Counted from the stretch's first letter, positions 5,807 to 47,591 are shown. The stretch: DNA of 64,000 nucleotides from Leptospiria bacterium (GCA_965261485.1 CBDHCY010000005.1:407641-471640), one strand, 5' to 3'. Notes: a model not told the origin generated them from the letters alone. Translations and numbers: made by a program.

Positions 5807-5813
<7 letters not shown>
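5792..5813 (+). other. 5' arm of the 23S rRNA processing stem
   Basis: tataaaacataatatggtcaag is perfectly complementary (22 bp) to 8786-8807, as expected for an RNase III-type processing helix that brackets the mature ends. Confidence 0.75.
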
Positions 5814-8785
<2,972 letters not shown>

Positions 8786-8792
<7 letters not shown>

Positions 8793-8807
8793 ATATTATG
8801 TTTTATA
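8786..8807 (+). other. 3' arm of the 23S rRNA processing stem
   Basis: cttgaccatattatgttttata is the reverse complement of 5792-5813. Confidence 0.75.
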
Positions 8808-9071: not shown

Positions 9072-10679
9072 ATGCTTTATCCTAAAACTTATAACTATAT
9101 ATTTTTAATTCCTTACTTATTATTTTATTCATGTGCTGCTGACTTTTTTGATATGTTCTTTCAAAAAAAAGCTTATAATAATACATTAGATATTGTAGCA
9201 GGTAGTTATCATACCTGTATGCTTTTTCGTGGCAAGGTTCGCTGTTGGGGTGATCAAGATATCAATGGATATGGAATACCTATTGGTTTAAAGCGTCTTC
9301 CTAACTCATTAGCTGATAATTTAACTTTTATAAATAAAGATTCTATTGTTAAACAAATCACCGCTGGGAAGAGGCATACCTGTGTTCTTTTTGAAGATAG
9401 TACTGTCCGGTGTTGGGGTGATAATAGTGTTGGTCAACTTGGATTAGGAAATACAATTAATATTACAGAAACTTCAAGGAGTGAATCTGATATTATATTT
9501 CAAGGGGTAAATGTTTTAGTCAAACAAATTGATGCTGGAAGTGATCATACTTGTGCTTTGAGCACAAAACATCAAATTTTTTGTTGGGGTTCTGGCAGTA
9601 ATGGTAAGCTTGGAAATAATACAACATTCAATATTGGTGATATCTCACCCATGAATCCTATTTCAACTGTTGTAACAAAAGTACAAAATAATTTTCCTGA
9701 AAATCAAAATCCTGTAAAAATAGCAGCTGGTGCTAACCATACATGTATTTATTTTGAAAATAATGATATAACCTGTTGGGGATTAATTACGGAATTAGGT
9801 GCTAATGGAGAGAATGCCACACGTAGTATGGCTGGCATTAATTTAGAGGGAAGTGCTGTGAGTGCCCCAGAATCTTCCTTAGTAAATTTATCAATTACTA
9901 ATATTGTATCTGGTGGAGGCGTAACATGTATTAAAATAAAAACAAATCGAGTTGTTTGTTGGGGAGTTGGTGTTGCTGGGAAACTAGGCTATGGTTGTGG
10001 CAGTGAAAATATAACAACCCATCATGTGGGAAGTAGCAATGTTTCGACAACAATATTCCCATCAAATGATGATGCTTTTCGAGTGGCCTATGATAACCAG
10101 CAGCCCATTACTGAGCCATTAAAAATGGATACAAATGATACAAATTGCCGTATGGATGGTAGTATCATTTCATATCAAAATTATACAGATATTTCTCAAG
10201 TTGTTATTGGGCCTGGCTCTTCTTATTCTTGTGTGTTAAGATTAAATGGAACAGTGCACTGCTTTGGTGCAAACTTTGGAGTTCATAACTTAACTCCAAG
10301 CGGGAGTATTAATCTCACAGCTATAAAAACAGCTAGTTGTACAAGAACAGCAGGAATAGATTATCCAGGTGGTAGTCCACTTGGATATAATATTCCTTCG
10401 TTCGAAAATAAGCTTACAGACATGAATAGTGAAGAAGAAGTGGAAACTCCAATAATTTCAACAAGAAATGAGCCTATACCTGTTGGAGGAACGGCAATCA
10501 GAATTGGTGCAGGAGAATCTCATGTTTGTGCACTTTTAGAAAATGATCAAATTAAATGCTGGGGAACCAACTGTACTGGACAATTAGGTCATGGAAATAA
10601 TATTGGTGAGGCTACAGGAGGAGGCGTATTAGGTTTTAAAAAACTTAGCTCTTATGGAACATTTAGTTTTCCATTTTGA
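9072..10679 (+). CDS. RCC1-repeat (seven-bladed beta-propeller) lipoprotein
   Basis: 535 aa. There are seven repeats of the RCC1 signature (H[TS]C.....V.CWG.N..GQLG). The N-terminus LLFYSCAADFF resembles a spirochaetal lipobox. Confidence 0.85.
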   Translation: MLYPKTYNYIFLIPYLLFYSCAADFFDMFFQKKAYNNTLDIVAGSYHTCMLFRGKVRCWGDQDINGYGIPIGLKRLPNSLADNLTFINKDSIVKQITAGKRHTCVLFEDSTVRCWGDNSVGQLGLGNTINITETSRSESDIIFQGVNVLVKQIDAGSDHTCALSTKHQIFCWGSGSNGKLGNNTTFNIGDISPMNPISTVVTKVQNNFPENQNPVKIAAGANHTCIYFENNDITCWGLITELGANGENATRSMAGINLEGSAVSAPESSLVNLSITNIVSGGGVTCIKIKTNRVVCWGVGVAGKLGYGCGSENITTHHVGSSNVSTTIFPSNDDAFRVAYDNQQPITEPLKMDTNDTNCRMDGSIISYQNYTDISQVVIGPGSSYSCVLRLNGTVHCFGANFGVHNLTPSGSINLTAIKTASCTRTAGIDYPGGSPLGYNIPSFENKLTDMNSEEEVETPIISTRNEPIPVGGTAIRIGAGESHVCALLENDQIKCWGTNCTGQLGHGNNIGEATGGGVLGFKKLSSYGTFSFPF

Positions 10680-10747
10680 ATATTTTATATTTTTTTTGAA
10701 TTTAAAGAATGTGAGTTGTAAGTTAGAACCAAGTATTTTTAGTGTAT

Positions 10748-11824
10748 ATGATAAGAAAAAATAAAATTATATGGAGTATTAGCTACTGGATTTTACCTCA
10801 GATTGGGTTTGCAAGTGTAGTTGCTGACTTTCCCCTTCATTTTCTTGAATCTGATAACCCGATCGAAAAAGCATTCTTAGCCCAAGTGAGACCCCGTATG
10901 AGGGAAGGATTACTTAACAAGGTACTTAGTTTGACTGATGTTAATTTGCCAAAAAATTTTAGTAAAGATTATGGAAATGGACGCTCTCTTGACGGTCATT
11001 TAGTATCGCCTATGGGTTCTGGATCTCTTAAAAGATCAAAGGTAATTCCAGTCGGTTTCGCTGTAGGTGTTGGTCTAATAAAAGCAAGCTCTCTTGCTTC
11101 ACTCCCTGGTCTAGAAGCTCTTCCTGTAAATATTTTACCTAGCGTTAATGTTGGAATAAACACAGGTTTTTCTTTTACACCTAATTTGGATGTTCGCTTT
11201 ACATACTTCCCTTTATCAGAAATTTTTTTACCTGGTCTCACTAGATACCGTTTAAAAAACGGTATTATAAGAATTGCGGCTAATTATTCTATACTAGATA
11301 ACGATCAAAGTCTATTTGGTTTCGGTTTAGCTTTTGGTATTTATTTGAGTCATTCAACTGGTGCCTTAGCTCTTACTATACCCATAGGTGCTACAGATGT
11401 TGCTATTAATGGTGCTGCTATAAATCTTAGTTTTCTTAATACACAATTTAATTCAAAATGGGTGCACTATGGTGGAGGTGCAGAAATTAGGTTACATTAT
11501 GCTTTACTTTTTTTTCTTCCATATTTTGGGTTTGGTCTTGGATTAGAGTATGGTAAAACAGAAAGTTTTTATGAGATTGACCTTAACATAAATGGTATCT
11601 ACAATTTAAAAGGAACGACGGGTATAACAGCAAAAATGGTTAATATTGTTCAAGAAAAAGGGAAAGTTTTAATTTTTGGAGATGCTCGAAGTGCTATTAT
11701 TCCTCTCCGAATTTTACTGGGTTTTGAATTTAATTTTTATAAATTATCTACAATTATAGAAATACAGTATTTATTAAATTCCGGTGTGATTGGCTTTTCT
11801 TATGGAATTAATTTTCTCATATGA
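10748..11824 (+). CDS. Hypothetical outer-membrane beta-barrel-like protein
   Basis: The N-terminus is signal-like. The sequence is Gly/aromatic-rich with alternating hydrophobic segments (GFGLAFGIYLS, FGFGLGLEYG) and ends GFSYGINFLI. The ATG at 10748 is preferred over the GTG at 10742. Confidence 0.5.
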   Translation: MIRKNKIIWSISYWILPQIGFASVVADFPLHFLESDNPIEKAFLAQVRPRMREGLLNKVLSLTDVNLPKNFSKDYGNGRSLDGHLVSPMGSGSLKRSKVIPVGFAVGVGLIKASSLASLPGLEALPVNILPSVNVGINTGFSFTPNLDVRFTYFPLSEIFLPGLTRYRLKNGIIRIAANYSILDNDQSLFGFGLAFGIYLSHSTGALALTIPIGATDVAINGAAINLSFLNTQFNSKWVHYGGGAEIRLHYALLFFLPYFGFGLGLEYGKTESFYEIDLNINGIYNLKGTTGITAKMVNIVQEKGKVLIFGDARSAIIPLRILLGFEFNFYKLSTIIEIQYLLNSGVIGFSYGINFLI

Positions 11825-13969: not shown

Positions 13970-15916
13970 ATGGAATTAGAACAGTTACCAGAAATTCAGA
14001 AAATTATCAATATTGGTAAGGCAAATGGTGAAATTACCTACGACGAAATTAATGATATTTTACCTGAAAAACTTACAAATTCAGATAAAATTGACGACGT
14101 TTTCATTCTTTTGAGTCAGTATGGAATTGAAATTATTGAAGAATACCAACATAGCTCTTCAAAACGAGGTCATGTCAAAGATCCTACTCAAGAGAATATT
14201 CGGCTTTTAGCTGAACAGCAATTACCTGAAAAAGGAATTGAAGAATTGAAGAAAATGGGTTATGAATTAACTCCTAATACTGGAGGAAGGCCATTCACAA
14301 TACAAGATGTCGCTATTCAGCTTATGAATAAGGGACACGACATTGAAATACTCGCTCAAGTTTTAAATCGTCCAGATTTGAGACCCCCCGTTGTTATTAC
14401 TAAAAAAAAAGGTAAAATTGTATCTGTTGCTGATGACCCAATCAAACTTTATTTAAGAGAAATTGGTAAAGTTTCTCTAATATCAGGGAGCAAAGAAGTC
14501 GAGTTGGCAAAACGTATTGAAGATGGTGAGTATATTATAGAAGATGCCATACTAGAATCTTCCCTGCTAAGAAGTTCTTTTTTGAGATATCATCCAAAAA
14601 TACAAGACGAAACAGCCCGAATTACAGATATTTGCCGAGCTTCTAAGACTTACTATATCTCTCAAACTGAAAAGAAAGAGTTGAAAAGAGTGTTTCTTTA
14701 CGAGATGGAGTTTGTTATTAAAATTGATAATGATATTAAAACACTTAAATCTAAGCTCAAAAGGTATACGTACAAAAGTAAAAAGCATGAAGAAATCTGG
14801 GCTGAGGTACTCAAATTTGAAGATAAGGCCAGTATCTACATGAAAAAAATTGGAGTTTCACAGAAAGAACTTATTAAGCACGTAAATAAAGTGAAAAGTA
14901 TGGTATTTCGAATCAAAGAGATAAAACGTCATTTTCTCCGCTTAAAAGAAAAACACGGGCATGATGTTAAAGAAGTTAAAGCTTTTAATCGGTATATTGA
15001 AAGACATGAAGAGTTAGATATGGTCGAAAAAAAAATGGGATGCTCAATTATTGATGTAAAAGAGGTGATTAAAGACATTCGTAATAATGAAAGAAAATTA
15101 CGTCGAATGGAGCAAGAAGCTGGTTCGCCGACTTTAATTATATTGTCTTGGGGCGAAAAGATTGCTAATGGTCAACGTGCGATTGAGATGGCTAAAAAAG
15201 AGTTAATTAACGCGAATCTTCGCTTAGTCGTCTCTATTGCAAAGCGATTTGCTAACAGAGGAATGCACTTTTTTGATTTAATTCAGGAAGGCAATATAGG
15301 GCTTATGAGAGCAGTTGAAAAATTTGAATATCGAAAAGGTTATAAGTTTTCTACCTATGCGACATGGTGGATCAGACAAGCCATTGCACGTTCAATTTCT
15401 GAACAGGCAAAAACAATACGTATTCCTAGTCATATGATTGAGCAAATTAATAAAGTGAATCGTGAGACTCGCCTTTTTTTACAGGAAATGGGACGCGAAC
15501 CTAATGATGACGAAATTGCGGAAAGACTTGGTTGGCCTTCTAATAAGGTCAAACAAGTAAAAGGTGTGGCCAAAGACCCTGTTTCTTTAGAAAGCCCAGT
15601 AGGTGAAGAAGAAGACTCTGAGTTGGGTGATTTTGTCGAAGATAAAAAAACGGATAGTCCTATTGCTGTCACTGCACAATCCATACTTGAAGAGCAGATT
15701 CAGCAAGTTTTAGCAACTCTTCCTGCAAGAGAACAAAAAGTTATTCGAATGCGTTTTGGTCTTGATGACGGTTATACTCACACATTAGAGGAAGTTGGCT
15801 ATGTGTTCAAGGTGACTCGTGAAAGAATTCGTCAGATTGAGGCCAAAGCTCTTAGAAGGCTTCGAGTTCCAACGAGAATGAGAAAGCTGAAGGATTTTCT
15901 TGACCAAACTCATTGA
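13970..15916 (+). CDS. rpoD: RNA polymerase primary sigma factor (sigma-70)
   Basis: 648 aa. Region 2 ([37 protein letters not shown]), region 3 and region 4 ([28 protein letters not shown]) are all present. Confidence 0.96.
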
Positions 15917-15921
15917 CAAAT

Positions 15922-17319
15922 ATGTCAATTACAAGAATAGAAAAAGATAGTTTTGGCGAGATAGAAGTTCCTTCTCATAGATATTGGGGGGCTCAAACAC
16001 AAAGATCACTTCAAAATTTTAAAATTGGCCGTCAAAAAATGCCTATCGAGGTGATTCATGCTTTCGCACTTTTAAAAAAAAGTGCCGCAATTACAAATCT
16101 CTCTTGTAAAATTTTATCTAAAAAAAAATCAGATATCATAGGAAAAGTCTGTGATGAAATATTATCAGAAAAATTAGATGATGAATTCCCTCTTGTTGTT
16201 TGGCAAACGGGTTCAGGTACTCAAAGTAATATGAACGTAAATGAGGTAATTGCAAATCGAGGTCATGTCCTTAATGGGGGGGCTTTGACTGATCATGATA
16301 AATTTCTTCATCCCAATGATGATATAAATAAATCACAGTCTTCAAATGATACTTTTCCAACAGCTATGCATATTGCCGCTTATAAAATAATGGTTGAAGT
16401 CACCATTCCTGAAGTAGAGAAATTAGCTAAAACATTTAAAAAAAAATCAGATCAATTTATGCATGTGGTGAAAATTGGTCGTACTCACTTTATGGATGCA
16501 ACTCCGTTGACATTAGGGCAAGAATTTTCAGGATATGTTTCCCAACTTGAACATAGTTTAAAAGCAATTAAGAACACACTCCCTCATTTATCTGAACTTG
16601 CTTTAGGTGGAACTGCTGTGGGTACCGGCATTAATACTCCCCCGTACTATGCTGAAAAAGTAGCTAAAGAGATAAAATATTGGAGTGGACTTCCCTTTCT
16701 TACAGCTCATAATAAATTTGAAGCTTTAGCTGCCCACGATGCAATTGTTGAAGCCTCTGGTGGGCTTAAAACTTTGGCAGTAAGTTTGCTAAAGATAGCG
16801 AATGATATAAGAATGCTTGCTTCAGGGCCCCGTTGTGGAATTGGTGAAATACTTATACCAGCAAATGAACCTGGCTCATCAATTATGCCGGGTAAGGTCA
16901 ATCCGACACAATGTGAAGCAATGACTATGGTGTGTGCACAAGTTATTGGAAATGATGTTGCTATTAACGTAGGTGGTATGAGTGGTCATTTCGAGCTAAA
17001 TGTATTCAAACCGATGATGATTTATAATTTTTTAATCTCTGCCCAAAATTTAGGAGATGCTGCTAAATCATTTAATGATAATTGTGTTATTGGTATTGAA
17101 CCCAACCATTCTGAGATCAATAAAAATTTGAATAATTCTTTAATGCTAATTACCGCTTTAAATACTCATATTGGTTACGATAATGCGACAAAGATCGCTA
17201 AAAAAGCATATGAAGAAAATATGACTCTAAAAGAGGCGGCTCTTTCATTAAGTTTACTTTCTTCTGAAGAATTTGATCGGTGGGTTATACCCAAAAATAT
17301 GGTTGGTAGTTTGGGTTGA
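15922..17319 (+). CDS. fumC: Class II fumarate hydratase
   Basis: Has the [16 protein letters not shown] signature and the N-terminus [29 protein letters not shown]. The ATG at 15922 fits the family N-terminus better than the TTG at 15913. Confidence 0.95.
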
Positions 17320-17576: not shown

Positions 17577-20500
17577 ATGTTATTGGAAGACTCTTTCCCT
17601 AAAACGATTGCTTCAATATTTTTAAAGTTTTTTTTTATTTACATAATATTTGTAGGAGGTCTTTTTTTAGCCCGGTATTATTTAAATGAAATTGAAATAT
17701 GGCCTTTTTTCTATTCTTGGTATGCAAAAGAGAGTGAAAAAAATACTAAGACATTTTTAAATGAACGACATCATTTAAATCAAAAAAAAAATTCCAAAGA
17801 TGTTCATAAAATTCTTTCTATAAGAAAATATTTAGAAAAAAAACCTAGATTTAATTTTGATATTCCAGAGTCTTCTTTTATTGAAAATTCTCTTGTCGAA
17901 GCATCAATTTACAAAGATAAAAATCTACCTAAAATTGATGAAGAATTTATAAAATCAGCTAAATATGATACCTCTGGAATTAGTGGAGGTCTTGATGGTA
18001 TCGAATTAAGAGTTTTTGGTAATTCTGGTGTTATTATGTCTTATGGTTTTTCTAACTATCTTACCAAAGAAGACTCACGAAATGATATTGTGTCGGCGAA
18101 TGCAATTAATATTAGAGAGGATTTTTTTTTAGAAGCGGGATTAAACTTAAACTTAAAAGGTAAGATTGGAAAAAGAGTTTTAATCGATGTTAACTATGAT
18201 CAAAATGAAAGGCTTCTAAATAATAAAATTCAACTTAAATATTTTGCCTTACATAAAAAAGAATTTGTTCGTGAAGTCACCGTTGGTAATGTCGGCTTTA
18301 ACTTCCCCAATGATGATTCAACGGAATTCAAAGGTTTTGAAAAAAAAGATAAAGAAACACTGGGAATTGAGGCAAAATTTAAAAAAGGGAAGTTAAGTTT
18401 TCACAGTGTTGCTACTTTGATAGGAGGGGAAACAGCAACAGAAATATTTACAGGTAATACTCATAATATAGAAACTATAATTCCTGAGTATACTTATAAA
18501 GCAAGAAAATATTTTCAGTTAGAGCCATTTATTTATTATGATAAAAAAAATATTTCGCCTATAATCACTAAGGCTTCCTATATAAGAAACAATTCAGATA
18601 GCCTTATTACTTTTACTTCAGTACCTTTAAATAAAAGTAATAAAAATTATCCAACTGCTGTTAATATTGATTCTGGTTCATTTGAAGTGTGGCTTGATGA
18701 TCAGGATGGAACAAATAATCGAATCTTAAATGCCCGAACAAAAAAAATTTTAGGTAATAATTTAGGTCACTATCATTTACTTCAAGAGTCTGATGATTAT
18801 CAAATAAATTATAAAAGTGGTAAACTTGAATTTATTAAATTTATTAGGAGTGATTCTCGTATCTATGTTCGTTACACACGGAATAGGAGTGATAAAGATA
18901 CGGCAGATCCGTCTGCTAGAACGGGTGTCAATGGCAAAATTGAAACTTTTATTTACTTTGGCTCTTCAATGAATGAAGATACAAATTTTGACGGCACTCA
19001 AAATATTACTATTATCAATGATGGTAAAGTAAATTATGATATCTATGAAGTAAGAAGCGTTTACAGCCTTGGTGCTTATAATTTACAAAAAAGTCAGCTT
19101 CAGCTCACCATTGTTGATAGAAATAGAAGTATTATTCCTGGTTTAAATGAGCAGTTAGGTGGTTATACCGTCGATTTTCAGCGAGGTCTTTTGAGCTTTT
19201 ATTTACGAGAACCTTTTAAAGCCCTTAAAAATCAAAATCAAGAATTTATATTGAATGATATGGAAGTAAAAGATATTTACTCTGAAATAAAAATTGATTC
19301 TTCAGAAATATCTCGATTGATGATTGAAGCGAGCTTAGTAGAAGAAATTCAAAATTATAAACTTCAGCATCCACAGATTATCCAAAATTCCGTACAAGTT
19401 ACAATTGATGGTATAAAAATTAAACCAACATTATATATCGTAGATTATTTATTGGGTTTTTTATCTTTCAGTGATAAAAGGAACCCTATAATTTCATCGG
19501 GTACAAGAATTGAAGTAACCTATCAATACTCACCTTTTGGACAAAAGACAAATGGCTTTATTTTAGGTTTAAGAAGTGAATATGAGATGAATCGCAATAT
19601 TAAGTTAGGAAATACACTTTTATATAATGCCCAACTAAAAAATAGTCAGGTACCAAAAATTGGTGAAGAGCCTGTAAGTCGCTTTATAATTGAAAATGAC
19701 CTAAAGGTAAACCTTGGGGAGAAAGAATTGACTAAATTTATAAATTATATTCCCGGTATTGATCTTGATCTTTTACCAGTGAGATATAATTTTTATGGGG
19801 AATATACTAAAAGTTTTTATAATCCAAATACAGTAAATATTGCCTTAGTTGATGATATGGAGTCATCTGAAGATAAAATAGAATTATCATTGAGTGACCG
19901 AGATTGGCAATTATCGAGTTTACCTCCTTCCTTAGGGCTTACTGAGTGTGATCGAGCTCCTTTACTTTACCGCTATTATCGTGATTTAAATAATCTTGAA
20001 TTGGGTCCTACTCGATTAAATACACCGATTCAAGCATCTCCTAATTATCGCCAACTTGCTGGCCCTTATAATGTTGCTGAAGGTCATTTAGATTTTAATC
20101 AGTTGAAACAAGCTGAAAGGCAAGTATCTTTGGTGATGGACTTTGATTTTTCTAGTGGTGGTAAGGTTGCAAGTATTGTTACTAGGCGTTTTTCTCCTGA
20201 AAGTAATGGGCAAAACCTTGCTCAGATAGAGTATATTGAATTTTCAGCTAAATTGATCGACCCCATTGCTCTGTCTGAAGGTGTTTCTATTCGTTTTGAT
20301 ATAGGTACTATTAATGAAGACTCCGATGCTGACTCTAAGTTAGATACAGAAGATGTGGGTTCAGATGGAATTAATAATGATTTGAATGGTGATGGTCTCC
20401 CAGATATTGGAACTTCTTTTTCTGGAGGTGAGCAGAATGGAAGAATTGATCAGGTTGTAGGAGGTTTTACGGAAGATAGAGGATACCATTTTAATGCACC

Positions 20501-23500
20501 TCGTATTTGTTCGGGGTTAAATACAAGAGTGGGTTCTGGCCCTGCTGTGTCTGGTAATCACAGAACAGATGGTAACGGAGTTTTGAATACAGAAGATTTA
20601 AATGGAGATGGTCGATTAGAAACGACTGAAAATGTGATCACATTTGATGAGTTAAACCGTAATTATATTAATTTTGACATTGCATCGGGGTTACACTCTT
20701 CTAATATAATTTTATCGGAAAATTGGCACTTAGTTAGAATGTATTTGAATCGAGAAGCTCTTAATGATACTCAAAAACAGCTACTACACCGTGTAAAAAG
20801 TATTCGTTTATATGTTGTTCCTAGTGGAGTGGGTTCAGCGAATGGAAAGGGACGTATTCTTATTGACAATATTAAATTAGGGCGATCTCTTTGGAGGCGT
20901 AAAAAACTACAAGTCAATAATGTTGAATCTGACTTAGAAGATACTAAAATATTGAATATCAGTACCATTGATAATCAAGACTCTAGGTCTGAATATGCAA
21001 ATGCTTCATTTATTGCTCAAGAAAGAAACGAATATGAAAAATTACATGGAATTCAAACAAATTTTGAACGAAGTCGTATGCGTGAGGCAGCTTTGAAGAT
21101 TAACTATAATTTTAATTCGAGTCTTTGCACTACAGGCGTATGTAAACACGCTTATGTTAGAAGAGTCTTTCTGAGATCACTTGATCTTAGTTCTTATAAT
21201 AAAATAAATATTTGGGTAAATTATCGTAAATTAAATACATCTGATGATTATTTCTTTTTTCGTTTTGGTTCTAGTGACAATAATTATGTGGAAGGCACTG
21301 AGAAGATGAATACTTTGGGATGGCATTTATTAAGTTTTGATATTCCTAAACAATCTGAAGGTGAGATTTGCCCAAAAATAAAACAATTTCATGGATGTCC
21401 CAATCTTAAGCGAGTGAATACAATGATTTTGGGAGTTCGTAATGAAAGCAGTACAGGAGGGAGTGAAGGTATAATTTGGGTCAATGATATTTTTGTGTCT
21501 GAATCAAATACTCAAAATGATGATTTTTATATGATAAAAAATGATATAAAAGTTATAAAACCATTTTATAAAACGAAAGGTGGCGTATCAATCTTTGATA
21601 ACTTCAAAGTCTCATATGATAAACGTTATCAAGGCAATAATTTTTTTACATTGAATCAAAATTTTAAGAATATTTCAATGGATGCGAATAACCTTAGTTT
21701 TACCTCTACATTACTCCCTTTTTTAGAGAGTGCTTATACTTTTTCTTATGTTACCTCTGAATCTTTTGACAATAAGCTTCAAGAACAAAAAGATTTTGAC
21801 GGCAAACTAACAAGGGTAACTCACAGCACACAATATGATTTTAAATTTGAGAATAAGTATTATCCCCGTGTTACAGTTAAATATGAATATCAAAATAAAA
21901 GTAGAGATAAGCAAAATCTTTTAAATAATGTTGTAGATACAGAAATCTTAAATCAATCTGTAGAGGAATATACATATGTACCTTATATTTCATTTTATCA
22001 AAAATTTTTAGATTTTGGGGGTCATAAACTTACTTTAGAGGCAAAAACAGGCATTCAATATTTTAAAAAAGAAGAAAATTTAATTTTGAGTGATTCTTTT
22101 GTAATACCAAAATCCACTCAAAATAAAAAATCAAAAGAACAAAAAGATGAAATGGACTCACATTTGATTTATCAATGGGGTGATTTTAGGTTGCAGACAT
22201 CTTATTTTTTTCGTCAAGTGCTTTTGGTAAATCAAAATTTTACAGATAATCAAATATCAAGTTTAATTAATGGTAATTTTTATTTTCCTTTTTATATAAC
22301 AGCTTCTGATTTTCGTTATGTTCAGAGGCTTAGTAAATATAAATTAGATTTAGAATATCGTAATTTTTGGATATTTTCACCCAAGTTAGAGTATTTATTT
22401 AATTATTTAGAAAATTCTTTTAGAGACAATTCAAGTTCAATAATATTTTCAGGCCTTTCTTTTCAAAGATATAAACAACCGAATAGTTATGCTCGAACAA
22501 ACTTTAGTCTCAATTTTGATCTCAAAAAAATATCTAAAAAACTTAGCTTCTTTAAAAAGATTTCAACTAGTTTTTTTCGAGAGGTCTCCGTAAATGAAAA
22601 CTTTGTTCCTTTCAGTGCAAAGACGGGGTTATTTGAAGATAAATATGGTTTATCAAGTCGTTTTCAAACTTTGTTTGTGAGAGTATATGATCTTTTTTCT
22701 TATCCATTTTGGCAACATTTTACCTCTAAAAATCGATCTCACAATAATTTTTCTGAGGGGAGAGCATATATACAAATGTTAAATTTTAGTCCGATTAGCC
22801 CTTCGATAGAATTTGAAGATGTTTTTTCGCAATATAGTCAAATAATTTTTTTGAAGGAACATATGAATATGGTTATAAATTGGAGTATATTTGATGGATT
22901 CCTTATTTTGAATGAAGCTCATTTAAGTCAGACAATCTCTCGCAGAGGGAATATTGGTGCTTTACCTCATCAAATTGTAAATTTGGGTGTAAGTGTTCGT
23001 CCAACAATTGATCTTATGAAAATTTTAAACTTTTGGTTTTGGTCTAAACCGTTAATAAACAAAAAAAATAATGGAGAATATTATCAAGAAAAAAGCTCTA
23101 ATTTAGATATTAACTTTCGTTATGAAAATCATTTGAAAGTAACCAGTAATATATCTCGCAAGCACTATATACCCGAGTTCAATCTTTCTTTCAATTGGCT
23201 GAATGAAAGAAGTGCTCTTCAATCATTACGTTTTCAGACAAATTTAGATTTTTCAAATGAGAATGAGAGTGATTTTTTTATTACAAATGGAAATCAAAAT
23301 GATATTTCAATATTTGAAAACATACAAAAAAGTGGTAACCGCTTTAAAAAAGAAAATATTAGTTTTGGTTTATCTATTTTATATGTTTTTGGTATTCCTT
23401 TATTGAGGGAGTGGCTGCAAGAACTAACTGGAATAAAATTAAAAAAAAATCCAAAATATAGAATTGAGTTTATATTTAATCTTAATCGCTTTAATTATGA

Positions 23501-23699
23501 TATTTATACTAATTTAAAAGAGTTCCCTTCTGATTTTTATATTCTTGCACAAAATTTAAGTATGAATATCCATACTAATATTATTGGAAAAATGCATTTT
23601 AAATCAGCACTTGAAATTCAGAGAGATCAAGAAACTAATCAAGAGCGTCAAAAAATTCTTGCTTTTGAAATTGGGCTTTCGATTCAAATTATTTTTTAA
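17577..23699 (+). CDS. Giant (2,040 aa) predicted outer-membrane protein, SprA-like
   Basis: Uninterrupted 6.1-kb ORF with an N-terminal hydrophobic anchor or signal. N-terminal motifs (KGKIGKRVLIDVNYDQN...REVTVGNVGFNFP, LGIEAKFKKGKLSF) resemble my recollection of SprA/Sov. It has Asp-rich Ca-binding-like inserts and a C-terminal beta-signal-like end (FEIGLSIQIIF). Confidence 0.55.
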   Translation: MLLEDSFPKTIASIFLKFFFIYIIFVGGLFLARYYLNEIEIWPFFYSWYAKESEKNTKTFLNERHHLNQKKNSKDVHKILSIRKYLEKKPRFNFDIPESSFIENSLVEASIYKDKNLPKIDEEFIKSAKYDTSGISGGLDGIELRVFGNSGVIMSYGFSNYLTKEDSRNDIVSANAINIREDFFLEAGLNLNLKGKIGKRVLIDVNYDQNERLLNNKIQLKYFALHKKEFVREVTVGNVGFNFPNDDSTEFKGFEKKDKETLGIEAKFKKGKLSFHSVATLIGGETATEIFTGNTHNIETIIPEYTYKARKYFQLEPFIYYDKKNISPIITKASYIRNNSDSLITFTSVPLNKSNKNYPTAVNIDSGSFEVWLDDQDGTNNRILNARTKKILGNNLGHYHLLQESDDYQINYKSGKLEFIKFIRSDSRIYVRYTRNRSDKDTADPSARTGVNGKIETFIYFGSSMNEDTNFDGTQNITIINDGKVNYDIYEVRSVYSLGAYNLQKSQLQLTIVDRNRSIIPGLNEQLGGYTVDFQRGLLSFYLREPFKALKNQNQEFILNDMEVKDIYSEIKIDSSEISRLMIEASLVEEIQNYKLQHPQIIQNSVQVTIDGIKIKPTLYIVDYLLGFLSFSDKRNPIISSGTRIEVTYQYSPFGQKTNGFILGLRSEYEMNRNIKLGNTLLYNAQLKNSQVPKIGEEPVSRFIIENDLKVNLGEKELTKFINYIPGIDLDLLPVRYNFYGEYTKSFYNPNTVNIALVDDMESSEDKIELSLSDRDWQLSSLPPSLGLTECDRAPLLYRYYRDLNNLELGPTRLNTPIQASPNYRQLAGPYNVAEGHLDFNQLKQAERQVSLVMDFDFSSGGKVASIVTRRFSPESNGQNLAQIEYIEFSAKLIDPIALSEGVSIRFDIGTINEDSDADSKLDTEDVGSDGINNDLNGDGLPDIGTSFSGGEQNGRIDQVVGGFTEDRGYHFNAPRICSGLNTRVGSGPAVSGNHRTDGNGVLNTEDLNGDGRLETTENVITFDELNRNYINFDIASGLHSSNIILSENWHLVRMYLNREALNDTQKQLLHRVKSIRLYVVPSGVGSANGKGRILIDNIKLGRSLWRRKKLQVNNVESDLEDTKILNISTIDNQDSRSEYANASFIAQERNEYEKLHGIQTNFERSRMREAALKINYNFNSSLCTTGVCKHAYVRRVFLRSLDLSSYNKINIWVNYRKLNTSDDYFFFRFGSSDNNYVEGTEKMNTLGWHLLSFDIPKQSEGEICPKIKQFHGCPNLKRVNTMILGVRNESSTGGSEGIIWVNDIFVSESNTQNDDFYMIKNDIKVIKPFYKTKGGVSIFDNFKVSYDKRYQGNNFFTLNQNFKNISMDANNLSFTSTLLPFLESAYTFSYVTSESFDNKLQEQKDFDGKLTRVTHSTQYDFKFENKYYPRVTVKYEYQNKSRDKQNLLNNVVDTEILNQSVEEYTYVPYISFYQKFLDFGGHKLTLEAKTGIQYFKKEENLILSDSFVIPKSTQNKKSKEQKDEMDSHLIYQWGDFRLQTSYFFRQVLLVNQNFTDNQISSLINGNFYFPFYITASDFRYVQRLSKYKLDLEYRNFWIFSPKLEYLFNYLENSFRDNSSSIIFSGLSFQRYKQPNSYARTNFSLNFDLKKISKKLSFFKKISTSFFREVSVNENFVPFSAKTGLFEDKYGLSSRFQTLFVRVYDLFSYPFWQHFTSKNRSHNNFSEGRAYIQMLNFSPISPSIEFEDVFSQYSQIIFLKEHMNMVINWSIFDGFLILNEAHLSQTISRRGNIGALPHQIVNLGVSVRPTIDLMKILNFWFWSKPLINKKNNGEYYQEKSSNLDINFRYENHLKVTSNISRKHYIPEFNLSFNWLNERSALQSLRFQTNLDFSNENESDFFITNGNQNDISIFENIQKSGNRFKKENISFGLSILYVFGIPLLREWLQELTGIKLKKNPKYRIEFIFNLNRFNYDIYTNLKEFPSDFYILAQNLSMNIHTNIIGKMHFKSALEIQRDQETNQERQKILAFEIGLSIQIIF

Positions 23700-23750: not shown

Positions 23751-26132
23751 TTGGTTTCTTTTATTATGGGTATAAATGCATCGATCTTAACAAAAAATCG
23801 ATTATTTAATAGTTTATTATTATTGTTATTTGGATTCGTAGGGCTGATCGTTGAATTTTTATTGACTTCCAAAGAGCTTGGAGATACTTTTTCCTTTTTT
23901 TTATTTTTTTCTAAATTTATTGGTATTTGTGGCATTATTTATATTCTATATAACTTACTTATATATGTTAATTTTTTGGGTTTTGATCGTCTCAGGTCAG
24001 TTTCTCTTTTTTTTGGTATTACCGTTGGTATACTTTTTATTCTAGCAGACAAAAAATTAACTTTTTTTGAGCCGGTTAAAGAGTTTTCGATTGATGCTAG
24101 ATTTAGAATTTCCTCCATAGATTTTTCTCAAGAAGATATAGTACAAGGAGTTATAAGATATAGTGAAAATAAAAAGGCACATCCTTCACTTCAAATTATT
24201 GGCATTGATAATGCTACTGTGAATGAGTATCAAGAAGGTTTCCCCTTTACATGGAGACACTACTCAGATTTACTAAAAGCTCTTAATAAATCAAATTATA
24301 AGACCCTTCTTTTTGATATTTTTTTTCTTGATCAAAAAAAAGATAGTTTTGATCAAGAAAAAGGAAAAAAAGGTAAGCTGAGTACAGTTTTTCAAACTAA
24401 TCAAAAGGTTATGGCTGACTATCCTTTTGAAACTCAAGCGTATCCTTTATCTGAAGAACAGAGAATATTGTTTAAAAAAAAATTACGAATATTTAAAAAA
24501 AATGAAATCTTGAATGTGATACCTACTGAATATGATAGAAAAGCTGAATGGGTTAAGTTTCCAGAGCTTCTTCTTCTTGATATTTTGAAGAATTTATACG
24601 GTATTGGTTATGCAAATATTAGAAAGCAAGATACCGGAGTAAATCGAACTTTACCTTTGGTTATAAAGTGGCAGAATAAGATATATCCTTCTATTGATTT
24701 GGTTACCTTAGCACATTACTACAATATAAATATTCAAAAAGATATTGAGGTTAAACTTGGTTCTTATGTTAAATTAAAAAATATACCTGAAGCAACCATT
24801 CAAGTTTATGACAGAGATTCTAAAAATAACATCCTTGTAGATTCAAAAGGAAATTTTAAAAAAAAGTCGGTTGATATCATTGCAAAGCCTAACTCTGAGA
24901 GAAATATTACCATTCCTATTGATGGTGAAGGTTTTATGTATATTAATTTTATTGGTGGACCTTGGTCGTATCCTTCTATTTCATTTCATACAGTGGCTGA
25001 TTCAGGAGTAGGCTCTTTTTCTGGAAATAATGATCCATTCAAGGATAAAATTCTTTTGGTCGCCATTTACTATGCAACGGGGGTTGCGAAGGACGTTCAT
25101 GCCAGTCCTTTTGGTGATATTTCTGGTATCGAACATCATGCAAATGCCTTAAATACAATTTTGAAACAAGATTTTATCCGCTATGCACCCGCTTGGTTAA
25201 ATTACTTAATTTATGTTCTTACTGGGGCGATTTTAGGTTTTATTATTGCACGTTTTAAAATTACTTTAGTATTAGTAGGTATCTGTTTATTTTCTATATT
25301 ATTTGCTGTTGAATGTTTAATTGCTTTTAATCTTTTTAACTTTATACATGTCTTTTTTGTACCCTATATTGAGATTGCTATTGTGATGATTAGTGTTGTT
25401 GGATATAAAGTACTCAACGAAGAACAAAATGTAAAGTATATCGAATCAACTTTTTCAAAGTTTGTGTCTGCTGATGTTGTGCGAGAACTGTTAGAGAATC
25501 CAGAGTCCATTAGCTTAGGTGGTATCAGTAAAAATATAACTGTTTTTTTCTCTGACATAAGGGGTTTTACTACGATTTCTGAGTCATTGACACCCAAAGA
25601 TCTTGTCTCTCTTCTTAACGAATATTTTTCTGAAATGACAAAAATATGTCTCAGGTATTATGGAACAATTGATAAATATATGGGTGATGCGATTATGGCT
25701 TTTTGGGGGGCTCCTATTTATAATCAGCATCATCCATATCAAGCTTGTTTAACTGCTTTGGTCCAACTTGAAGTACTTAATAAGTTACAAAAAAAATGGA
25801 GGGCTGAAGGTAGACCTATTCTAGATATTGGAATTGGTTTAAATACTGGAAATGCTGTTGTTGGAAATATCGGCTCTTCTCTTCGTATGGATTATACTGT
25901 TATGGGTGATGTTGTAAATTTAGGCGCTCGTTTGGAAGGAATTAATAAGGTGTATGGAACAAAAATTATTATTTCTGAAAGTACTTACCAAGCAGTGAAA
26001 GATAAAGTTATTAGTAGAGAACTTGATTCCATACGAGTAAAAGGTAAAAGTCAACCCATTTTAGTCTATGAGCTTATTGACGTTAAAAATCAAGGAGATT
26101 TTATCTCTTTTGCAAAGAAAAAAAATAATTAA
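23751..26132 (+). CDS. CHASE2 sensor domain-containing class III adenylate/guanylate cyclase
   Basis: The C-terminal cyclase motifs are FFSDIRGFTTISE, GDAIMAFWGAP and GLNTGNAVVGNIGS..R.DYTVMGDVVNLGARLE. A long N-terminal periplasmic region is followed by three transmembrane helices (CHASE2 architecture). The start is either TTG 23751 or ATG 23766. Confidence 0.85.
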   Translation: MVSFIMGINASILTKNRLFNSLLLLLFGFVGLIVEFLLTSKELGDTFSFFLFFSKFIGICGIIYILYNLLIYVNFLGFDRLRSVSLFFGITVGILFILADKKLTFFEPVKEFSIDARFRISSIDFSQEDIVQGVIRYSENKKAHPSLQIIGIDNATVNEYQEGFPFTWRHYSDLLKALNKSNYKTLLFDIFFLDQKKDSFDQEKGKKGKLSTVFQTNQKVMADYPFETQAYPLSEEQRILFKKKLRIFKKNEILNVIPTEYDRKAEWVKFPELLLLDILKNLYGIGYANIRKQDTGVNRTLPLVIKWQNKIYPSIDLVTLAHYYNINIQKDIEVKLGSYVKLKNIPEATIQVYDRDSKNNILVDSKGNFKKKSVDIIAKPNSERNITIPIDGEGFMYINFIGGPWSYPSISFHTVADSGVGSFSGNNDPFKDKILLVAIYYATGVAKDVHASPFGDISGIEHHANALNTILKQDFIRYAPAWLNYLIYVLTGAILGFIIARFKITLVLVGICLFSILFAVECLIAFNLFNFIHVFFVPYIEIAIVMISVVGYKVLNEEQNVKYIESTFSKFVSADVVRELLENPESISLGGISKNITVFFSDIRGFTTISESLTPKDLVSLLNEYFSEMTKICLRYYGTIDKYMGDAIMAFWGAPIYNQHHPYQACLTALVQLEVLNKLQKKWRAEGRPILDIGIGLNTGNAVVGNIGSSLRMDYTVMGDVVNLGARLEGINKVYGTKIIISESTYQAVKDKVISRELDSIRVKGKSQPILVYELIDVKNQGDFISFAKKKNN

Positions 26133-30018: not shown

Positions 30019-31194
30019 TTATGTTAAATAGTTGGCGTTAATTTTAACGTATTCTTCAGTTAGGTCACAGCCATAGACTCGCCAAGAGGCATTTCCAATA
30101 TTTAAATTAACTTCTAAAAATATTTCTTCATTTTTTTTTAAATAATGAGAAAGTGTTTGGTTTATATTTGAGTCATTTTTTTGCTTTTTCTCGCCCCAAG
30201 ATAATTGAATTTTATCGGGTATAATGTGTGCCTGAGAAGTTTTTCCAATCGCCATATAAATTCGTCCCCAATTTGGATTGCTTTTAGATATGGCTGTCTT
30301 AACTAAAGGAGAATTAATAATATTTTTGCCTACGCTTCGAGCATCATTTTCATTAACTGCACCTTTAACATCCACAATAAAAAGCTTACTAGCTCCCTCT
30401 CCATCACGGGCAAGCCATCGAGTCATTTGAATTGACATTTCTTCAAATGTTTTTGAGAATTTATTTTCATCTACTTCATGAGCTAATCCATTGGCCATAA
30501 TAAATAAAGTATCTGAAGTTGACATATCTGAGTCAATAGATAAACTATTAAATGTTTTGTCTATGATGGGTTGTGTGATTGTACGAAGACAGTCTGAGGA
30601 AATTTTAGCATCTGTGAAAAAATAAGATAACGTTGTTGCCATATTTGGCTCAATCATTCCTGAGCCCTTTGTTACTCCAACAATCTTTACTTTACCTATT
30701 TGTGATGATATATATTTAGGGAAGGTATCTGTTGTCATGATTGCTTTAGAAAAATTTTCAAAATTTGGTGGAGTTGTTAGCTGGGTCGATAAAGAGTTTA
30801 ATGCTGAGCATATTTTATCAACGGGTAAATTAATACCGATAGCACCAGTTGAAGATGGAAAAATAGAATGAAGAGGTATTTTCATTTGGCTAGCTACTTT
30901 TTGGCATACATTTATACAATTTTCATAACCTTGTTTTCCTGTAGAAACATTTGAGTTTTTTGAATTGACTACAAGTGCTCTAAAATTATTTTTTTGATAG
31001 TGTTTTTGTGCTACTTTAATTGGTTCACCTTTAATTTTATTTTTTGTAAAAAAAGCGGCTGATGTACAAACTTTTTCTGAAACAACGACACCCAAATCAA
31101 GAGATTTATCTTTTATACCACAATTAGTCACAAAAGTATGAAAGCCTTTAGGTAAATATTTTAAAGCTTTTGGTTTTTTAGAAAATGTTACCAC
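30019..31194 (-). CDS. argJ: Bifunctional glutamate N-acetyltransferase / amino-acid acetyltransferase
   Basis: 391 aa. N-terminus LPKGFHTFVTNCGIK, autoprocessing region PNMATTLSYFFTDA, and the typical C-terminal YVKINANYLT ending. The GTG start overlaps the DUF58 stop by 7 nt. Confidence 0.9.
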   Translation of the reverse strand: MVTFSKKPKALKYLPKGFHTFVTNCGIKDKSLDLGVVVSEKVCTSAAFFTKNKIKGEPIKVAQKHYQKNNFRALVVNSKNSNVSTGKQGYENCINVCQKVASQMKIPLHSIFPSSTGAIGINLPVDKICSALNSLSTQLTTPPNFENFSKAIMTTDTFPKYISSQIGKVKIVGVTKGSGMIEPNMATTLSYFFTDAKISSDCLRTITQPIIDKTFNSLSIDSDMSTSDTLFIMANGLAHEVDENKFSKTFEEMSIQMTRWLARDGEGASKLFIVDVKGAVNENDARSVGKNIINSPLVKTAISKSNPNWGRIYMAIGKTSQAHIIPDKIQLSWGEKKQKNDSNINQTLSHYLKKNEEIFLEVNLNIGNASWRVYGCDLTEEYVKINANYLT

Positions 31195-32465
31195 TTTAGT
31201 TCAAAATAATTAGTGATAATTTTTTGATATAAATTTTCAGGGTGATCATTTATGTATAATAAATGATTATGTTTAAAAAAAAGATCTTCACTTTTTTTCT
31301 CTTTTAGAAGGTGAATTCTCGCCCAAAGATAAGCAAGGTCATGAGAATTTTCATAATAATATTTGAAAAGTCGGATGGGATTTACCCAAATTATTTGATA
31401 ATTTTTACTTAAAAGATAAATTACCTCCCTTTGAGCATAAATTTGCTCAAAATTTAAAAATGGAGATAACAAAATTAAAATACTTTTTTTTTGTAATTTA
31501 TTCTTTACAAAATTATAAAGCTCCATTAGGTTCATATGCTCATAACTTTCTTCAACACGTTGTAGCCTTTTAAAAATAGAAGATAAGTTTCTTTTAGAAA
31601 GGTCTGGTGGAATATATAAATCAATTTTATCTGAAAATGTGAGTAGACCAGTCTCATCTTGATTTTTTATAAAAGTAGAAGCTAATTGAAAAGCAAGTGC
31701 TGTCTGATAATCAGTATATTGATATTTTTTATAATCAAAGCGACTTGAAATACCTGTATTTAATATAATTAGAGTTTTACGATTTTGCTCTTTTTGATAT
31801 TCGTTCACATAAATTTCATTGAAACTCCCGGCAGTTTTTTGCCAATTAATATTTTTAAGAGAATCACCAAATTGATATAAACGGATTCCATAAAAATCAC
31901 TTTCTCCAGATATATGATATCGTTGATTTATTCTTCCTACTTTTTTTTTCTCTTGATTAACTAAATGAAGAATGGGTGGTGCTATAAAAATTTTATGTTT
32001 GTGAATAAGTTTACGATATCGGGTAAATATACCCAACCTTGTTTGATATCCTATATAAAATTCAATATCATGATAAGTACCTTTGCTTTTACCTTTAAAT
32101 TTGAAAAAAGTATCAGATTTGTATAATGTATATATACGGGGAGAAAATTCGGCAGGCAAAAAAATTTTCAAAAAGAATTCTGAATTAAATTGATTCCAAT
32201 CAATAGTAATTTCTTGAAAACGGTTAAGTTCCATAAAATTAGGCCAATTGATATCAAAAGAAATTTTGTTAAATTCTTTTTCTAAGCAAATATTGCTATG
32301 GCGTAGGTCATAAATGAGTACATATATGAGTAATATAATATAAGGGATAAAAATTTTTGGAATAAGAATAGGTATTAAACTTGAAAGCCAAAGTAGACTT
32401 AAAATTTTTCGATCTCCAGGAAAAAAATATTTTTTAGATGTAATTTGCTTTGCTGAATAATGCAT
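31188..32465 (-). CDS. DUF58 domain-containing membrane protein
   Basis: 425 aa with two N-terminal transmembrane helices and the DUF58 core motif IRLYQFGDSLKNINWQKTA. It lies directly downstream of the MoxR ATPase, the usual pairing. Confidence 0.8.
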   Translation of the reverse strand: MHYSAKQITSKKYFFPGDRKILSLLWLSSLIPILIPKIFIPYIILLIYVLIYDLRHSNICLEKEFNKISFDINWPNFMELNRFQEITIDWNQFNSEFFLKIFLPAEFSPRIYTLYKSDTFFKFKGKSKGTYHDIEFYIGYQTRLGIFTRYRKLIHKHKIFIAPPILHLVNQEKKKVGRINQRYHISGESDFYGIRLYQFGDSLKNINWQKTAGSFNEIYVNEYQKEQNRKTLIILNTGISSRFDYKKYQYTDYQTALAFQLASTFIKNQDETGLLTFSDKIDLYIPPDLSKRNLSSIFKRLQRVEESYEHMNLMELYNFVKNKLQKKSILILLSPFLNFEQIYAQREVIYLLSKNYQIIWVNPIRLFKYYYENSHDLAYLWARIHLLKEKKSEDLFFKHNHLLYINDHPENLYQKIITNYFELKW

Positions 32466-32537
32466 ATTAGTTATTTTATGAAAGAGGCTGTGCTTACCTC
32501 ATGTTTGGGTTAAATCTCCTTATAAAAAAAATATATT

Positions 32538-33479
32538 TTATCGAGGAACTTCCTCAGAGGCTAATATTTTATCTAATACAGAACCAGCATCTATATTTTC
32601 CATTTGAGCTTCTGTGGAAAGTATTATACGATGTTGAAGAACATATTTGTAAAGTATTTGGATATCATCAGGAATAACAAAATCACGATCTTCTTTGAAA
32701 CCCCATACACGTGCTAATTGAAGTAAATGTACAGACGCTCTTGGACTCGCCCCATATTCAATATATTTATTTTGACGTGTTTTACGAATTAAGCGTAAAA
32801 GATAGTCTATAATATTTTCACTCACTGTGACCTTGAATGCTTCTTCTTTTAATTTAGAAATTTCTTGAGTACTTGTAATTTGTTTTATTTGAGAAAAATC
32901 TATATTTTTACTGTCTTTACCTTGAATAGCATTTGATAAAATTTTCTCTTCTTCACTAAATTTAGGGAAATTAACTCGAATCATGATCATAAATCGGTCT
33001 AATTGAGCTTCAGGTAGGGGATAGGTACCAGCCAACTCAATTGGATTTTGAGTTGCTAGAACAAAGAATAGATCACCTAGAGAATAGCTTTTTCGTTCCA
33101 CTGTGACTTGATATTCTTCCATTGCCTCAAGAAGTGCTGCCTGAGTTTTAGGAGGTGTACGATTTATTTCATCAGCAAGAATAATATTTGAAAAGATGGG
33201 ACCTTTTCGAAAAGAGAAACTTGTATTATTTTTATTATAGTAAATATGCCCTAAAATATCAGAAGGTAGGAGATCAGGAGTAAACTGAATACGCTCAAAA
33301 TTAAGACCAAGTAATTTAGCCAAAACTTTAACACTAAAAGTCTTTCCAGTTCCGGGTAGACCTTCAAGAATAACATGACCACTAGCAAGGAAGCTTGCTA
33401 AAAGGAGCTCTAATGTTTCATCGTAACCTATAATATATTCGGAAAATTTATTTTGAATATTTTTAAACCACGAATTCAT
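32538..33479 (-). CDS. MoxR-family AAA+ ATPase
   Basis: 313 aa. Walker A is GLPGTGKT and Walker B is ILADEINRTPPKTQAALLEAMEE. Typical MoxR length and C-terminal lid. Confidence 0.9.
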   Translation of the reverse strand: MNSWFKNIQNKFSEYIIGYDETLELLLASFLASGHVILEGLPGTGKTFSVKVLAKLLGLNFERIQFTPDLLPSDILGHIYYNKNNTSFSFRKGPIFSNIILADEINRTPPKTQAALLEAMEEYQVTVERKSYSLGDLFFVLATQNPIELAGTYPLPEAQLDRFMIMIRVNFPKFSEEEKILSNAIQGKDSKNIDFSQIKQITSTQEISKLKEEAFKVTVSENIIDYLLRLIRKTRQNKYIEYGASPRASVHLLQLARVWGFKEDRDFVIPDDIQILYKYVLQHRIILSTEAQMENIDAGSVLDKILASEEVPR

Positions 33480-46723: not shown

Positions 46724-47577
46724 TTATCTTGATTATCTTCGATCAATTTTTTATGATAATTACTTTGATTATTTTTGTATCCTGTCTCTTTTTGGTCAAA
46801 ACTCATATCAATTCCATCAAAATAGAAATCGCGAATGGTACTTAAAACTTTTAGACTGTCTAGAAATACCACTATAGATCCTTTCAAGGAGGCCGTGGGT
46901 TTTGATCTAATTACGAGCTTTTTTAAAACCATACTTTTTTCTTGAGGAAAAAACAATGTTTTTTGTAGAAAATATGAAGGTATCTTTACTATGAGAGGTC
47001 TCCAGCCAATATAGTTAAGTGAGCCAAAATGACCAATAAATGTTTCACCTCTCCAGTCTTCCAACCAAACCTCTAGTGAAACATCGTTGCCTCTACCTAA
47101 AGCCCATATACTTAGGGAGTCAATGCGTCCAGGCAACTCAATACCAGGCACAGTCATATATTTTGGCTGATTTTTTGAGTCAAGTTGCCCTGTAGGTCTT
47201 CTAATCTTTTTATCTTTTGGTGGAGTAAGTACCACTGAATTATGACCTTGGTAAACAAAATTAAAACGAATTCCCATTGACTTCTTATTTTTACTATTAT
47301 TGCCTAGGTTTATGGGGCGTCCATCAACAAGTTTTGATTCGGCAATGCCCGCAGGAGGACCAGGAATAGATTCAATATCCCAAGCTACTTTTTCCCAACC
47401 TTCAACTATGATGGAACGTAGTTGCTTCGCTCCTACATCTTCACTTTGAAAGGTATTGATTTGACTATCCAGAGATTTTAGTATAAAAAAAGCTCCTATC
47501 ACAAGAAAAAATAAATTCTTGAAGAGGGACAATTTTATTAGTTTATTGAAATGATTCATTATTTTAGTCTTTTTCAT
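46720..47577 (-). CDS. flaA: Flagellar filament outer layer (sheath) protein FlaA
   Basis: Matches the FlaA family pattern (SLSIWALGRGNDVSLEVWLEDWRGETFIGHFGSLNYIGWRPLIVKIP) and has a signal peptide. ATG 47577 is preceded by AGGAGA and is preferred over TTG 47598. Confidence 0.8.
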   Translation of the reverse strand: MKKTKIMNHFNKLIKLSLFKNLFFLVIGAFFILKSLDSQINTFQSEDVGAKQLRSIIVEGWEKVAWDIESIPGPPAGIAESKLVDGRPINLGNNSKNKKSMGIRFNFVYQGHNSVVLTPPKDKKIRRPTGQLDSKNQPKYMTVPGIELPGRIDSLSIWALGRGNDVSLEVWLEDWRGETFIGHFGSLNYIGWRPLIVKIPSYFLQKTLFFPQEKSMVLKKLVIRSKPTASLKGSIVVFLDSLKVLSTIRDFYFDGIDMSFDQKETGYKNNQSNYHKKLIEDNQDN

Positions 47578-47591
47578 CTTATTTTTCTCTC

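Follow-up and report, generated by a model that had tools for sequence, protein, structure and literature searches.

A stretch of 64,000 nucleotides from a Leptospiria bacterium (GCA_965261485.1 CBDHCY010000005.1:407641-471640), to which we refer as the window, encodes a protein of 2,040 amino acids (aa) that we propose to belong to the SprA/Sov superfamily as a very divergent member and to form a giant outer-membrane channel that works outside the canonical type IX secretion system (T9SS). To the whole of this statement we assign a probability of about 0.6, while its core, namely that a true SprA-family giant barrel is encoded by a spirochaete, we regard as almost certain. The gene occupies positions 17577..23699 of the forward strand (stop codon included) as a single open reading frame (ORF) without interruption, which begins with ATG and cannot start upstream of position 17538, as the preceding in-frame stop ends at 17537. 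An SprA-like protein had been suggested at this place by an original prediction made from the sequence alone; the 6.1-kb ORF, the terminal FEIGLSIQIIF and the two peptides that it quoted are all present in the ORF listing and the translation, the peptides (KGKIGKRVLIDVNYDQNERLLNNKIQLKYFALHKKEFVREVTVGNVGFNFP and LGIEAKFKKGKLSFHSVATLIGGETATEIF) letter for letter.

Homology to SprA and predicted fold

SprA of Flavobacterium johnsoniae (Fjoh_1653; 6H3I, 6H3J, 8GL6 and 8GL8 in the PDB) and Sov of Porphyromonas gingivalis are the outer-membrane translocons of the T9SS, and both are single polypeptides of ~2,000 aa or more. The full-length Sov/SprA model of NCBIfam, TIGR04189, matches the window protein in four stretches (E=3.6e-51) with a score of 173.7 bits, which lies under the curated cutoff of 200 bits. 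A Pfam scan of the protein returned nothing meaningful, SprA_N (PF14349) being without a match at E<=0.1, and there is no precomputed SprA_N assignment on any member of the clade of relatives described below. By the rules of the databases the window protein is thus not called SprA, and its score under the curated TIGR04189 cutoff explains the name "hypothetical protein" that members of its clade bear at NCBI. A phmmer search of the PDB with the single sequence returned no match, the solved SprA included. When 15 relatives were combined into a profile, F. johnsoniae SprA (6H3I_A) was matched in collinear segments with E=2.2e-20, and the alignment of the two reveals parallels in the motifs GKIG.R...NYD, GNVS and LFGVK..LQFG, where the SprA sequence reads GKIGTRLEVNANYDTQSTFAFQNLFKLAYTP-SEDDIIQKVEVGNVSMPLN and LFGVKTQLQFGR; the SprA motifs that the original prediction had cited agree with this sequence.

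The comparison of profiles by hhalign, with 14 bona fide SprAs carrying PF14349 on the SprA side, aligned aa 121-1360 to SprA consensus columns 149-1475 over 1,122 columns (Prob 100%, E=4e-81). Therefore, given both the profile and the profile-profile matches, the homology of the N-terminal two-thirds of the protein to SprA can be considered secure at the level of sequence. The lack of a significant hit to any SprA model, which had been envisaged as an argument against the prediction, was borne out neither by TIGR04189 nor by hhalign. The two ends of the protein did not align: aa 1-140 compared with residues 1-125 of the SprA alignment gave Prob 0.07%, and aa 1340-2040 compared with the C-terminal third of SprA (960 aa) gave Prob 1.3% at best. 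On the grounds of secure, collinear homology across the conserved core we place the protein in SprA/Sov understood as a homologous superfamily; it is not an SprA in the sense of the curated equivalog, as it scores below the cutoff and lacks both the N-terminal extension and the C-terminal sequence similarity.

The structure was modelled with AlphaFold2 in two parts, aa 121-1320 and aa 1272-2040. In a Foldseek search of the PDB with the N-terminal model (predicted local distance difference test, pLDDT, 72.6; predicted TM-score, pTM, 0.60) the top four matches were the SprA chains 8GL6, 8GL8, 6H3I and 6H3J (E=2.2e-43 to 4.2e-29, query TM-score 0.41-0.49), and the first match other than SprA appeared at E=2e-5; beta-sandwich domains of this model match carbohydrate-binding modules at low significance. 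The C-terminal model (pLDDT 80.9, pTM 0.70) contains 25 beta-strands of 10-23 residues, and its best matches are again these four SprA chains (E=1.7e-7 to 1.3e-5, query TM-score 0.33-0.38), followed by TonB-dependent transporters, LptD, MtrB and SlpA (E=6e-5 to 1e-3). The latter group of large barrels (LptD, TonB-dependent transporters/SusC, MtrB and Deinococcus SlpA) is thus also matched by the C-terminal model, as generic barrels; however, all of them rank below the four SprA chains and none matches the N-terminal 1,200 aa, and neither Pfam nor NCBIfam yielded a match of the window protein to the TonB-dependent receptor, LptD or plug-domain families. A TamB/AsmA-like or fibrous adhesin fold, considered as an alternative, was rejected, since no such family was matched in Pfam or NCBIfam and no such structure was found among the Foldseek matches. 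The predicted structure therefore resembles the solved SprA better than any other fold, and for the C-terminal third the likeness is confined to the predicted fold and does not extend to the sequence. The segment-wise modelling proposed with the original prediction thus returned SprA chains for both parts, and its SprA-like reading is supported by TIGR04189, hhalign and Foldseek alike.

Several regions can be distinguished along the polypeptide. The N-terminus carries a hydrophobic segment (~aa 10-32, within 17577..17681), which we predict to be a Sec signal or anchor; Kyte-Doolittle windows above 1.6 begin only at residues 7-18, and this is the sole transmembrane-like stretch of the protein. 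It is followed by a variable linker (aa 36-120, 17682..17936), in which the mean column identity within the clade is 0.15-0.26, compared to 0.36-0.49 in SprA. In F. johnsoniae the N-terminal extension of SprA is folded within the trimer of SkpA and touches SprE, by which the translocon is connected to its partners in the periplasm (PMC10994853), and the window protein has no counterpart of this conserved extension. The SprA-homologous core (aa 121-1360, 17937..21656), which according to hhalign and the models would comprise the first barrel strands and the inserted domains, displays the hallmark motifs GKIGKR, GNV/GNID, VDY..G, DDMESS, GPYN, INEDSD, TEDLN.DG, DLR.Y, GSS..Y.E and IWVNDI. Within the core lies an acidic segment with DxDxDG-like repeats (aa 881-1030, 20217..20666; D 11.3%, G 14.0%, N 9.3%) and the conserved motifs INEDSDGDG..LDTED and GNGVLNTEDLN.DG, which possibly binds Ca2+; AlphaFold2 predicts it to be flexible, with pLDDT <50 at model residues 804-853. 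[quoted passage not shown] The terminal phenylalanine of outer-membrane proteins typically functions in this beta-signal. In the family, F2040 is invariant in all 22 aligned members and the consensus E.G.S..IIF is kept, which is consistent with such a role.

Thus, the window protein shares with SprA the collinear homology of aa 121-1360, the blocks of motifs, the best structural match for both parts and, in the model, a C-terminal part with the long beta-strands that one would expect in a barrel wall. On the other hand, F. johnsoniae SprA (2,403 aa) is longer by ~360 aa, and the window protein has neither the SkpA/SprE-binding extension nor sequence similarity in the C-terminal third; it comes from a spirochaete rather than from a member of the Fibrobacteres-Chlorobi-Bacteroidetes (FCB) group, and neither in the window nor at the related loci were T9SS genes, or cargo with a C-terminal sorting domain (CTD), found in linkage with it.

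A clade of uncultured spirochaetes

The host is a spirochaete, as fixed by the set of genes for the periplasmic flagellum: the window contains two tandem genes of FlaA (46720-48338, reverse strand), the sheath protein of spirochaete periplasmic flagella, and FapA together with two flagellin genes (56092-59782, forward strand). It also contains a domain of the LIC_11485 family and a complete 23S rRNA gene (5807-8794, forward strand) without an adjoining 16S or 5S gene; unlinked rRNA genes are typical of Leptospiraceae. The spirochaete context assumed in the original prediction is confirmed by these genes. Its description of the genome as "Leptospira-like" is to be understood as referring to metagenome-assembled genomes (MAGs) of Leptospiria and Leptospirales, which are uncultured organisms with small, low-GC genomes; no relative was seen in cultured Leptospira.

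No relative was retrieved when exact peptide patterns were scanned for, and a scan based on an alignment, applied to one genome for each GTDB species and confirmed by tblastn, identified 111 stretches. Of the 79 loci listed, almost every one carries a title that names a MAG of Spirochaetota, Leptospirales, Leptospiraceae, Leptospiria or Turneriellaceae, and several lie on megabase-scale contigs or complete chromosomes; a few were found in bins labelled otherwise (Caldithrix, Hydrogenedentota, Bacteroidetes). A family-wide profile search brought no new members of the clade, the candidates being swamped by SprAs from Bacteroidota, and a profile of a subclade retrieved at least 148 clusters (at 90% identity) with E<=1e-40. 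Among the 120 clusters listed, the proteins have 1.57-1.93 thousand aa, each one that has a name is called "hypothetical protein" and comes from an uncultured spirochaete, and cultured Leptospira, Leptonema and Turneriella have no entry; all carriers that we have seen are uncultured. A few members of the clade (P0375, P0413, P0420, P0422 and others) bear a precomputed PF27067 assignment, which was not reproduced with the Pfam used here.

The gene is full-length in 72 of 78 copies, and in a comparison of 22 sequences, whose identity with the window protein is 26-65%, ~80 positions do not vary; therefore, it must have been maintained under constraint. A neighbour-joining tree groups the spirochaete sequences into a single clade, which lies outside all other SprAs, those from the FCB group included. 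We conclude that the clade is old and vertically inherited in uncultured Leptospiria/Leptospirales and is not a recent import from Bacteroidota. The possibility of an artefact, i.e. of a Bacteroidota/FCB gene brought here by mis-assembly, mis-binning or very recent horizontal transfer, could be raised on account of the few loci with non-spirochaete bin labels. However, the FlaA genes share the contig with our gene, the GC content of the gene (0.27-0.33) equals that of its surroundings (~0.31 in the window), the gene is carried by more than 100 independent Spirochaetota/Leptospirales MAGs, megabase-scale contigs and complete chromosomes among them, and the clade is monophyletic outside the FCB SprAs. 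Contamination or recent transfer from FCB is thus excluded for practical purposes.

On the scale of the clade's own profile, full-length members score at least 2,000 bits, two partial ones 1,500-1,900 and the best classical SprA 280. An exhaustive phmmer search with aa 140-1300 against 1.84 billion representative sequences gave 842 matches at E<=1e-3, of which 92 reach E<=1e-30, and below the tight family these form a continuum of proteins of 1.5-2.2 thousand aa. One of them, P0227, is a classical short SprA (TIGR04189 776 bits) with two Por_Secre_tail cargo genes in its locus (L085). Four others (P0202, P0206, P0209 and P0211), of 1.6-2.0 thousand aa, are SprA-like with TIGR04189 scores of 81-199 bits, i.e. 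below the cutoff, and neither P0202 (L087:4929-10694) nor P0209 (L088:467-6394) has any Pfam annotation or T9SS neighbours. Therefore, divergent SprA-like barrels are probably not unique to spirochaetes, and the sequences suggest that unannotated divergent barrels of the SprA type exist beyond both the FCB group and the spirochaete clade.

It is instructive to compare the clade with short SprAs from outside Bacteroidota, namely P0020 (1,835 aa, from candidate division WOR-3), P0227 (1,938 aa) and P0018 (2,119 aa), which are similar in length to the clade (1.8-2.1 thousand aa) and whose genes lie in contexts of the housekeeping type, as in the spirochaete loci. Of the classical SprAs, P0018 and P0020 come closest to the spirochaete profile (236-280 bits). 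However, the short SprAs still match SprA_N of Pfam and P0227 passes the SprA cutoff, whereas the window protein does neither; likewise, the locus of P0227 encodes Por_Secre_tail cargo, in contrast to the flanks of the spirochaete loci, where none was found (0/268). An lptF/lptG pair lies directly upstream of the short sprA gene on the opposite strand both in L084 (P0018; 1489-3958) and in L085 (P0227; 7268-9693), and this linkage of sprA and lptFG may be conserved outside Bacteroidota; it has no equivalent at the spirochaete loci.

Partners, cargo and possible role

Pfam was applied to every window ORF of at least 150 aa, and NCBIfam in addition to those without annotation. No T9SS component was found among them, in agreement with the original prediction, and three unannotated ORFs had no match in the PDB. 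For the wider neighbourhood, 1,353 ORFs called in 81 related loci and the window were clustered; the core components of the T9SS, namely GldK/L/M/N (PorK/L/M/N), PorV, SprE/PorW, PorU and SprT, were found neither among the conserved neighbours in the 81 loci nor among the scanned ORFs of the 64-kb window. The neighbours that do recur (M23 peptidase, DHH phosphoesterase, SpoIIE-type phosphatase, RadA, IspE, MlaD, GlmU, Prs, L25 and Pth) represent housekeeping synteny. The sole tight neighbour, an M23 (LytM-type) peptidase, is encoded ~74 nucleotides upstream on the same strand in ~45 loci, all of them from the subclade with 27-30% identity (e.g. L075:8681-9676). We considered it as a functional partner and rejected this idea, because the window lacks it and the genes around it have housekeeping functions. 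A LysM-M23 peptidase is also encoded two genes away from the divergent homolog P0209 (L088:7179-8687).

The search for cargo covered the C-terminal 100 aa of 268 non-redundant ORFs from ~1.6 Mb of flanks of the spirochaete loci, which were compared with Pfam, with the two CTD proteins of L085 as positive controls. Sorting domains of type A (Por_Secre_tail) and type B (CHU_C) were found in 0/268 flank ORFs, and the positive controls were detected. The orphan status of the gene, as seen in the window and the ~1.6 Mb of flanks, is probable. Because the N-terminal extension is absent, no T9SS partner is linked to the gene in the window or the 81 loci, and none of the 268 flank proteins has a sorting domain, the protein is probably not part of a canonical T9SS.

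We propose the following scenario. The protein would be exported by Sec via its single N-terminal hydrophobic segment and inserted by BAM with the aid of the invariant C-terminal phenylalanine, both steps being probable in view of these sequence features, to form a giant outer-membrane beta-barrel roughly of the size of SprA. The barrel would carry inserted domains of large size that are homologous to the parts of SprA outside the barrel, and by analogy with SprA its most likely task would be that of a wide conduit across the outer membrane, through which large and possibly folded substrates, most plausibly proteins to be exported, would pass without the canonical SkpA/SprE/PorV/GldKLMN machinery. 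It is tempting to go further and to consider such a stand-alone barrel as an unrecognised export route of Leptospira-related spirochaetes, free of the GldLM/PorKN motor-hub, of PorV carriers and of sorting domains, which might resemble an ancestral translocon that predates the FCB-specific T9SS; this extension is a speculative one, in which we place limited confidence.

It must be noted that several points weigh against the reading of the protein as an SprA-type channel working outside the T9SS. It falls short of the curated SprA score, and its C-terminal third is dissimilar to SprA in sequence. SprA forms a closed barrel of 36 strands with an extracellular cap and a lateral opening; the barrel of the window protein was modelled as two fragments with modest TM-scores (0.33-0.49), which weakens any conclusion on its closure, strand number, cap and lateral opening. 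The role in transport or secretion rests on analogy. Proteins with a CTD make up 1-2% of the proteins of T9SS-positive organisms by our own rough figure, and at this frequency 0/268 would arise with a probability of ~0.005-0.07; moreover, the Pfam models would miss sorting signals that have diverged strongly. Missing linkage is weak evidence, because the genes of the T9SS are scattered in Bacteroidota too, to the extent that four components were modelled as "loners" by Abby et al. 2016 (PMC4793230).

The same dispersal lends some credit to a different explanation, according to which the protein would serve as translocon in a T9SS that is complete but has diverged strongly, while a PorV-like carrier, SprE, a motor and hub resembling GldKLMN, and the cargo would be encoded elsewhere in the genome. 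This would agree with the strong conservation of the SprA core motifs, and annotations of outer-membrane proteins of the PorV/PorQ family exist for one spirochaete at least, namely Brachyspira (bioRxiv 10.1101/2025.01.03.631275). However, the extension that docks to SkpA/SprE has no counterpart, none of the 268 flank ORFs encodes a sorting domain as compared to two among ~20 genes at the classical short-SprA locus L085, the 64-kb window contains no T9SS family, and no T9SS outside Bacteroidetes emerged from surveys in which spirochaete genomes were covered (PMC4793230), all of which renders a complete system improbable. Alternatively, a barrel derived from SprA may have ceased to move proteins and serve as a pore for the uptake of large nutrients, or as a structural or surface-organising outer-membrane protein that acts via its extracellular domains. 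The lack of detected secretion partners and cargo (neighbourhoods and 268 flank ORFs), the low-significance matches of the modelled beta-sandwich domains to carbohydrate-binding modules, the conserved, possibly Ca2+-binding acidic segment and the divergence of the barrel wall from SprA in sequence could all be accommodated by such a function. Nonetheless, the blocks shared with SprA that are most conserved fall into the 1,122-column core, which argues for retention of a common mechanism, there is no signal of a TonB box or plug domain, and no genes of nutrient uptake are linked; hence we consider a non-secretory barrel unlikely, if somewhat less so than a complete T9SS.

The distribution of the clade is at variance with the current view of the system. 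Surveys place the T9SS only in Bacteroidetes/FCB (PMC4793230), and a Nature paper of 2025 describes SprA as FCB-specific and its assembly as tied to BAM subunits of the FCB type (PMC12611786). In the searchable literature (SprA or T9SS combined with Leptospira, Spirochaetes or Spirochaetota) we found no report of SprA homologs in Spirochaetota. A large, conserved and vertically inherited SprA clade in this phylum contradicts the FCB-only distribution and bears on the origin and the minimal requirements of the translocon. It will be interesting to determine if the translocon pre-dated the remaining T9SS, if an SprA-type barrel can function without PorV, SkpA/SprE and a proton-driven hub, and how a BAM of the non-FCB type builds a barrel of ~36 strands. 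In practical terms, the family is detectable with standard models, and more than 100 database entries named "hypothetical protein" can receive a family assignment.

Surroundings of the gene in the window

The window protein is recorded from one contig only, of 2.13 Mb. Its gene is preceded by that of a class II fumarase (15913-17319, TIGR00979 768 bits) and followed by that of a protein with CHASE2 and adenylate/guanylate cyclase domains (23751-26132); both flanking genes had been correctly named (as fumC and a CHASE2 cyclase) in the original prediction. Beyond them lie rpoD upstream, and rpsO, pnp and an M16 peptidase gene downstream, and the order rpoD-fumC-gene-cyclase-rpsO-pnp is not kept in the related loci L001 or L002. 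A scan for promoters and terminators returned counts equal to the shuffled expectation and was uninformative.

Among the remaining genes of the window, an 840-aa protein (33599-36121, reverse strand) consists of four tandem PEBP/YbhB (Raf-kinase-inhibitor-like) domains, an unusual arrangement, and the local GC content is 0.41 compared to ~0.31 in the window. At 31188-33479 (reverse strand) the genes of a MoxR-type AAA ATPase and a DUF58/VWA protein adjoin each other. Two citrate synthase paralogs are encoded less than 50 kb apart (319-1419 and 49874-51040, both on the forward strand). A protein of 535 aa with RCC1 repeats (beta-propeller; 9072-10679, forward strand) is followed by an ORF of 360 aa (10742-11824, forward strand) that has no match in Pfam, NCBIfam or the PDB.

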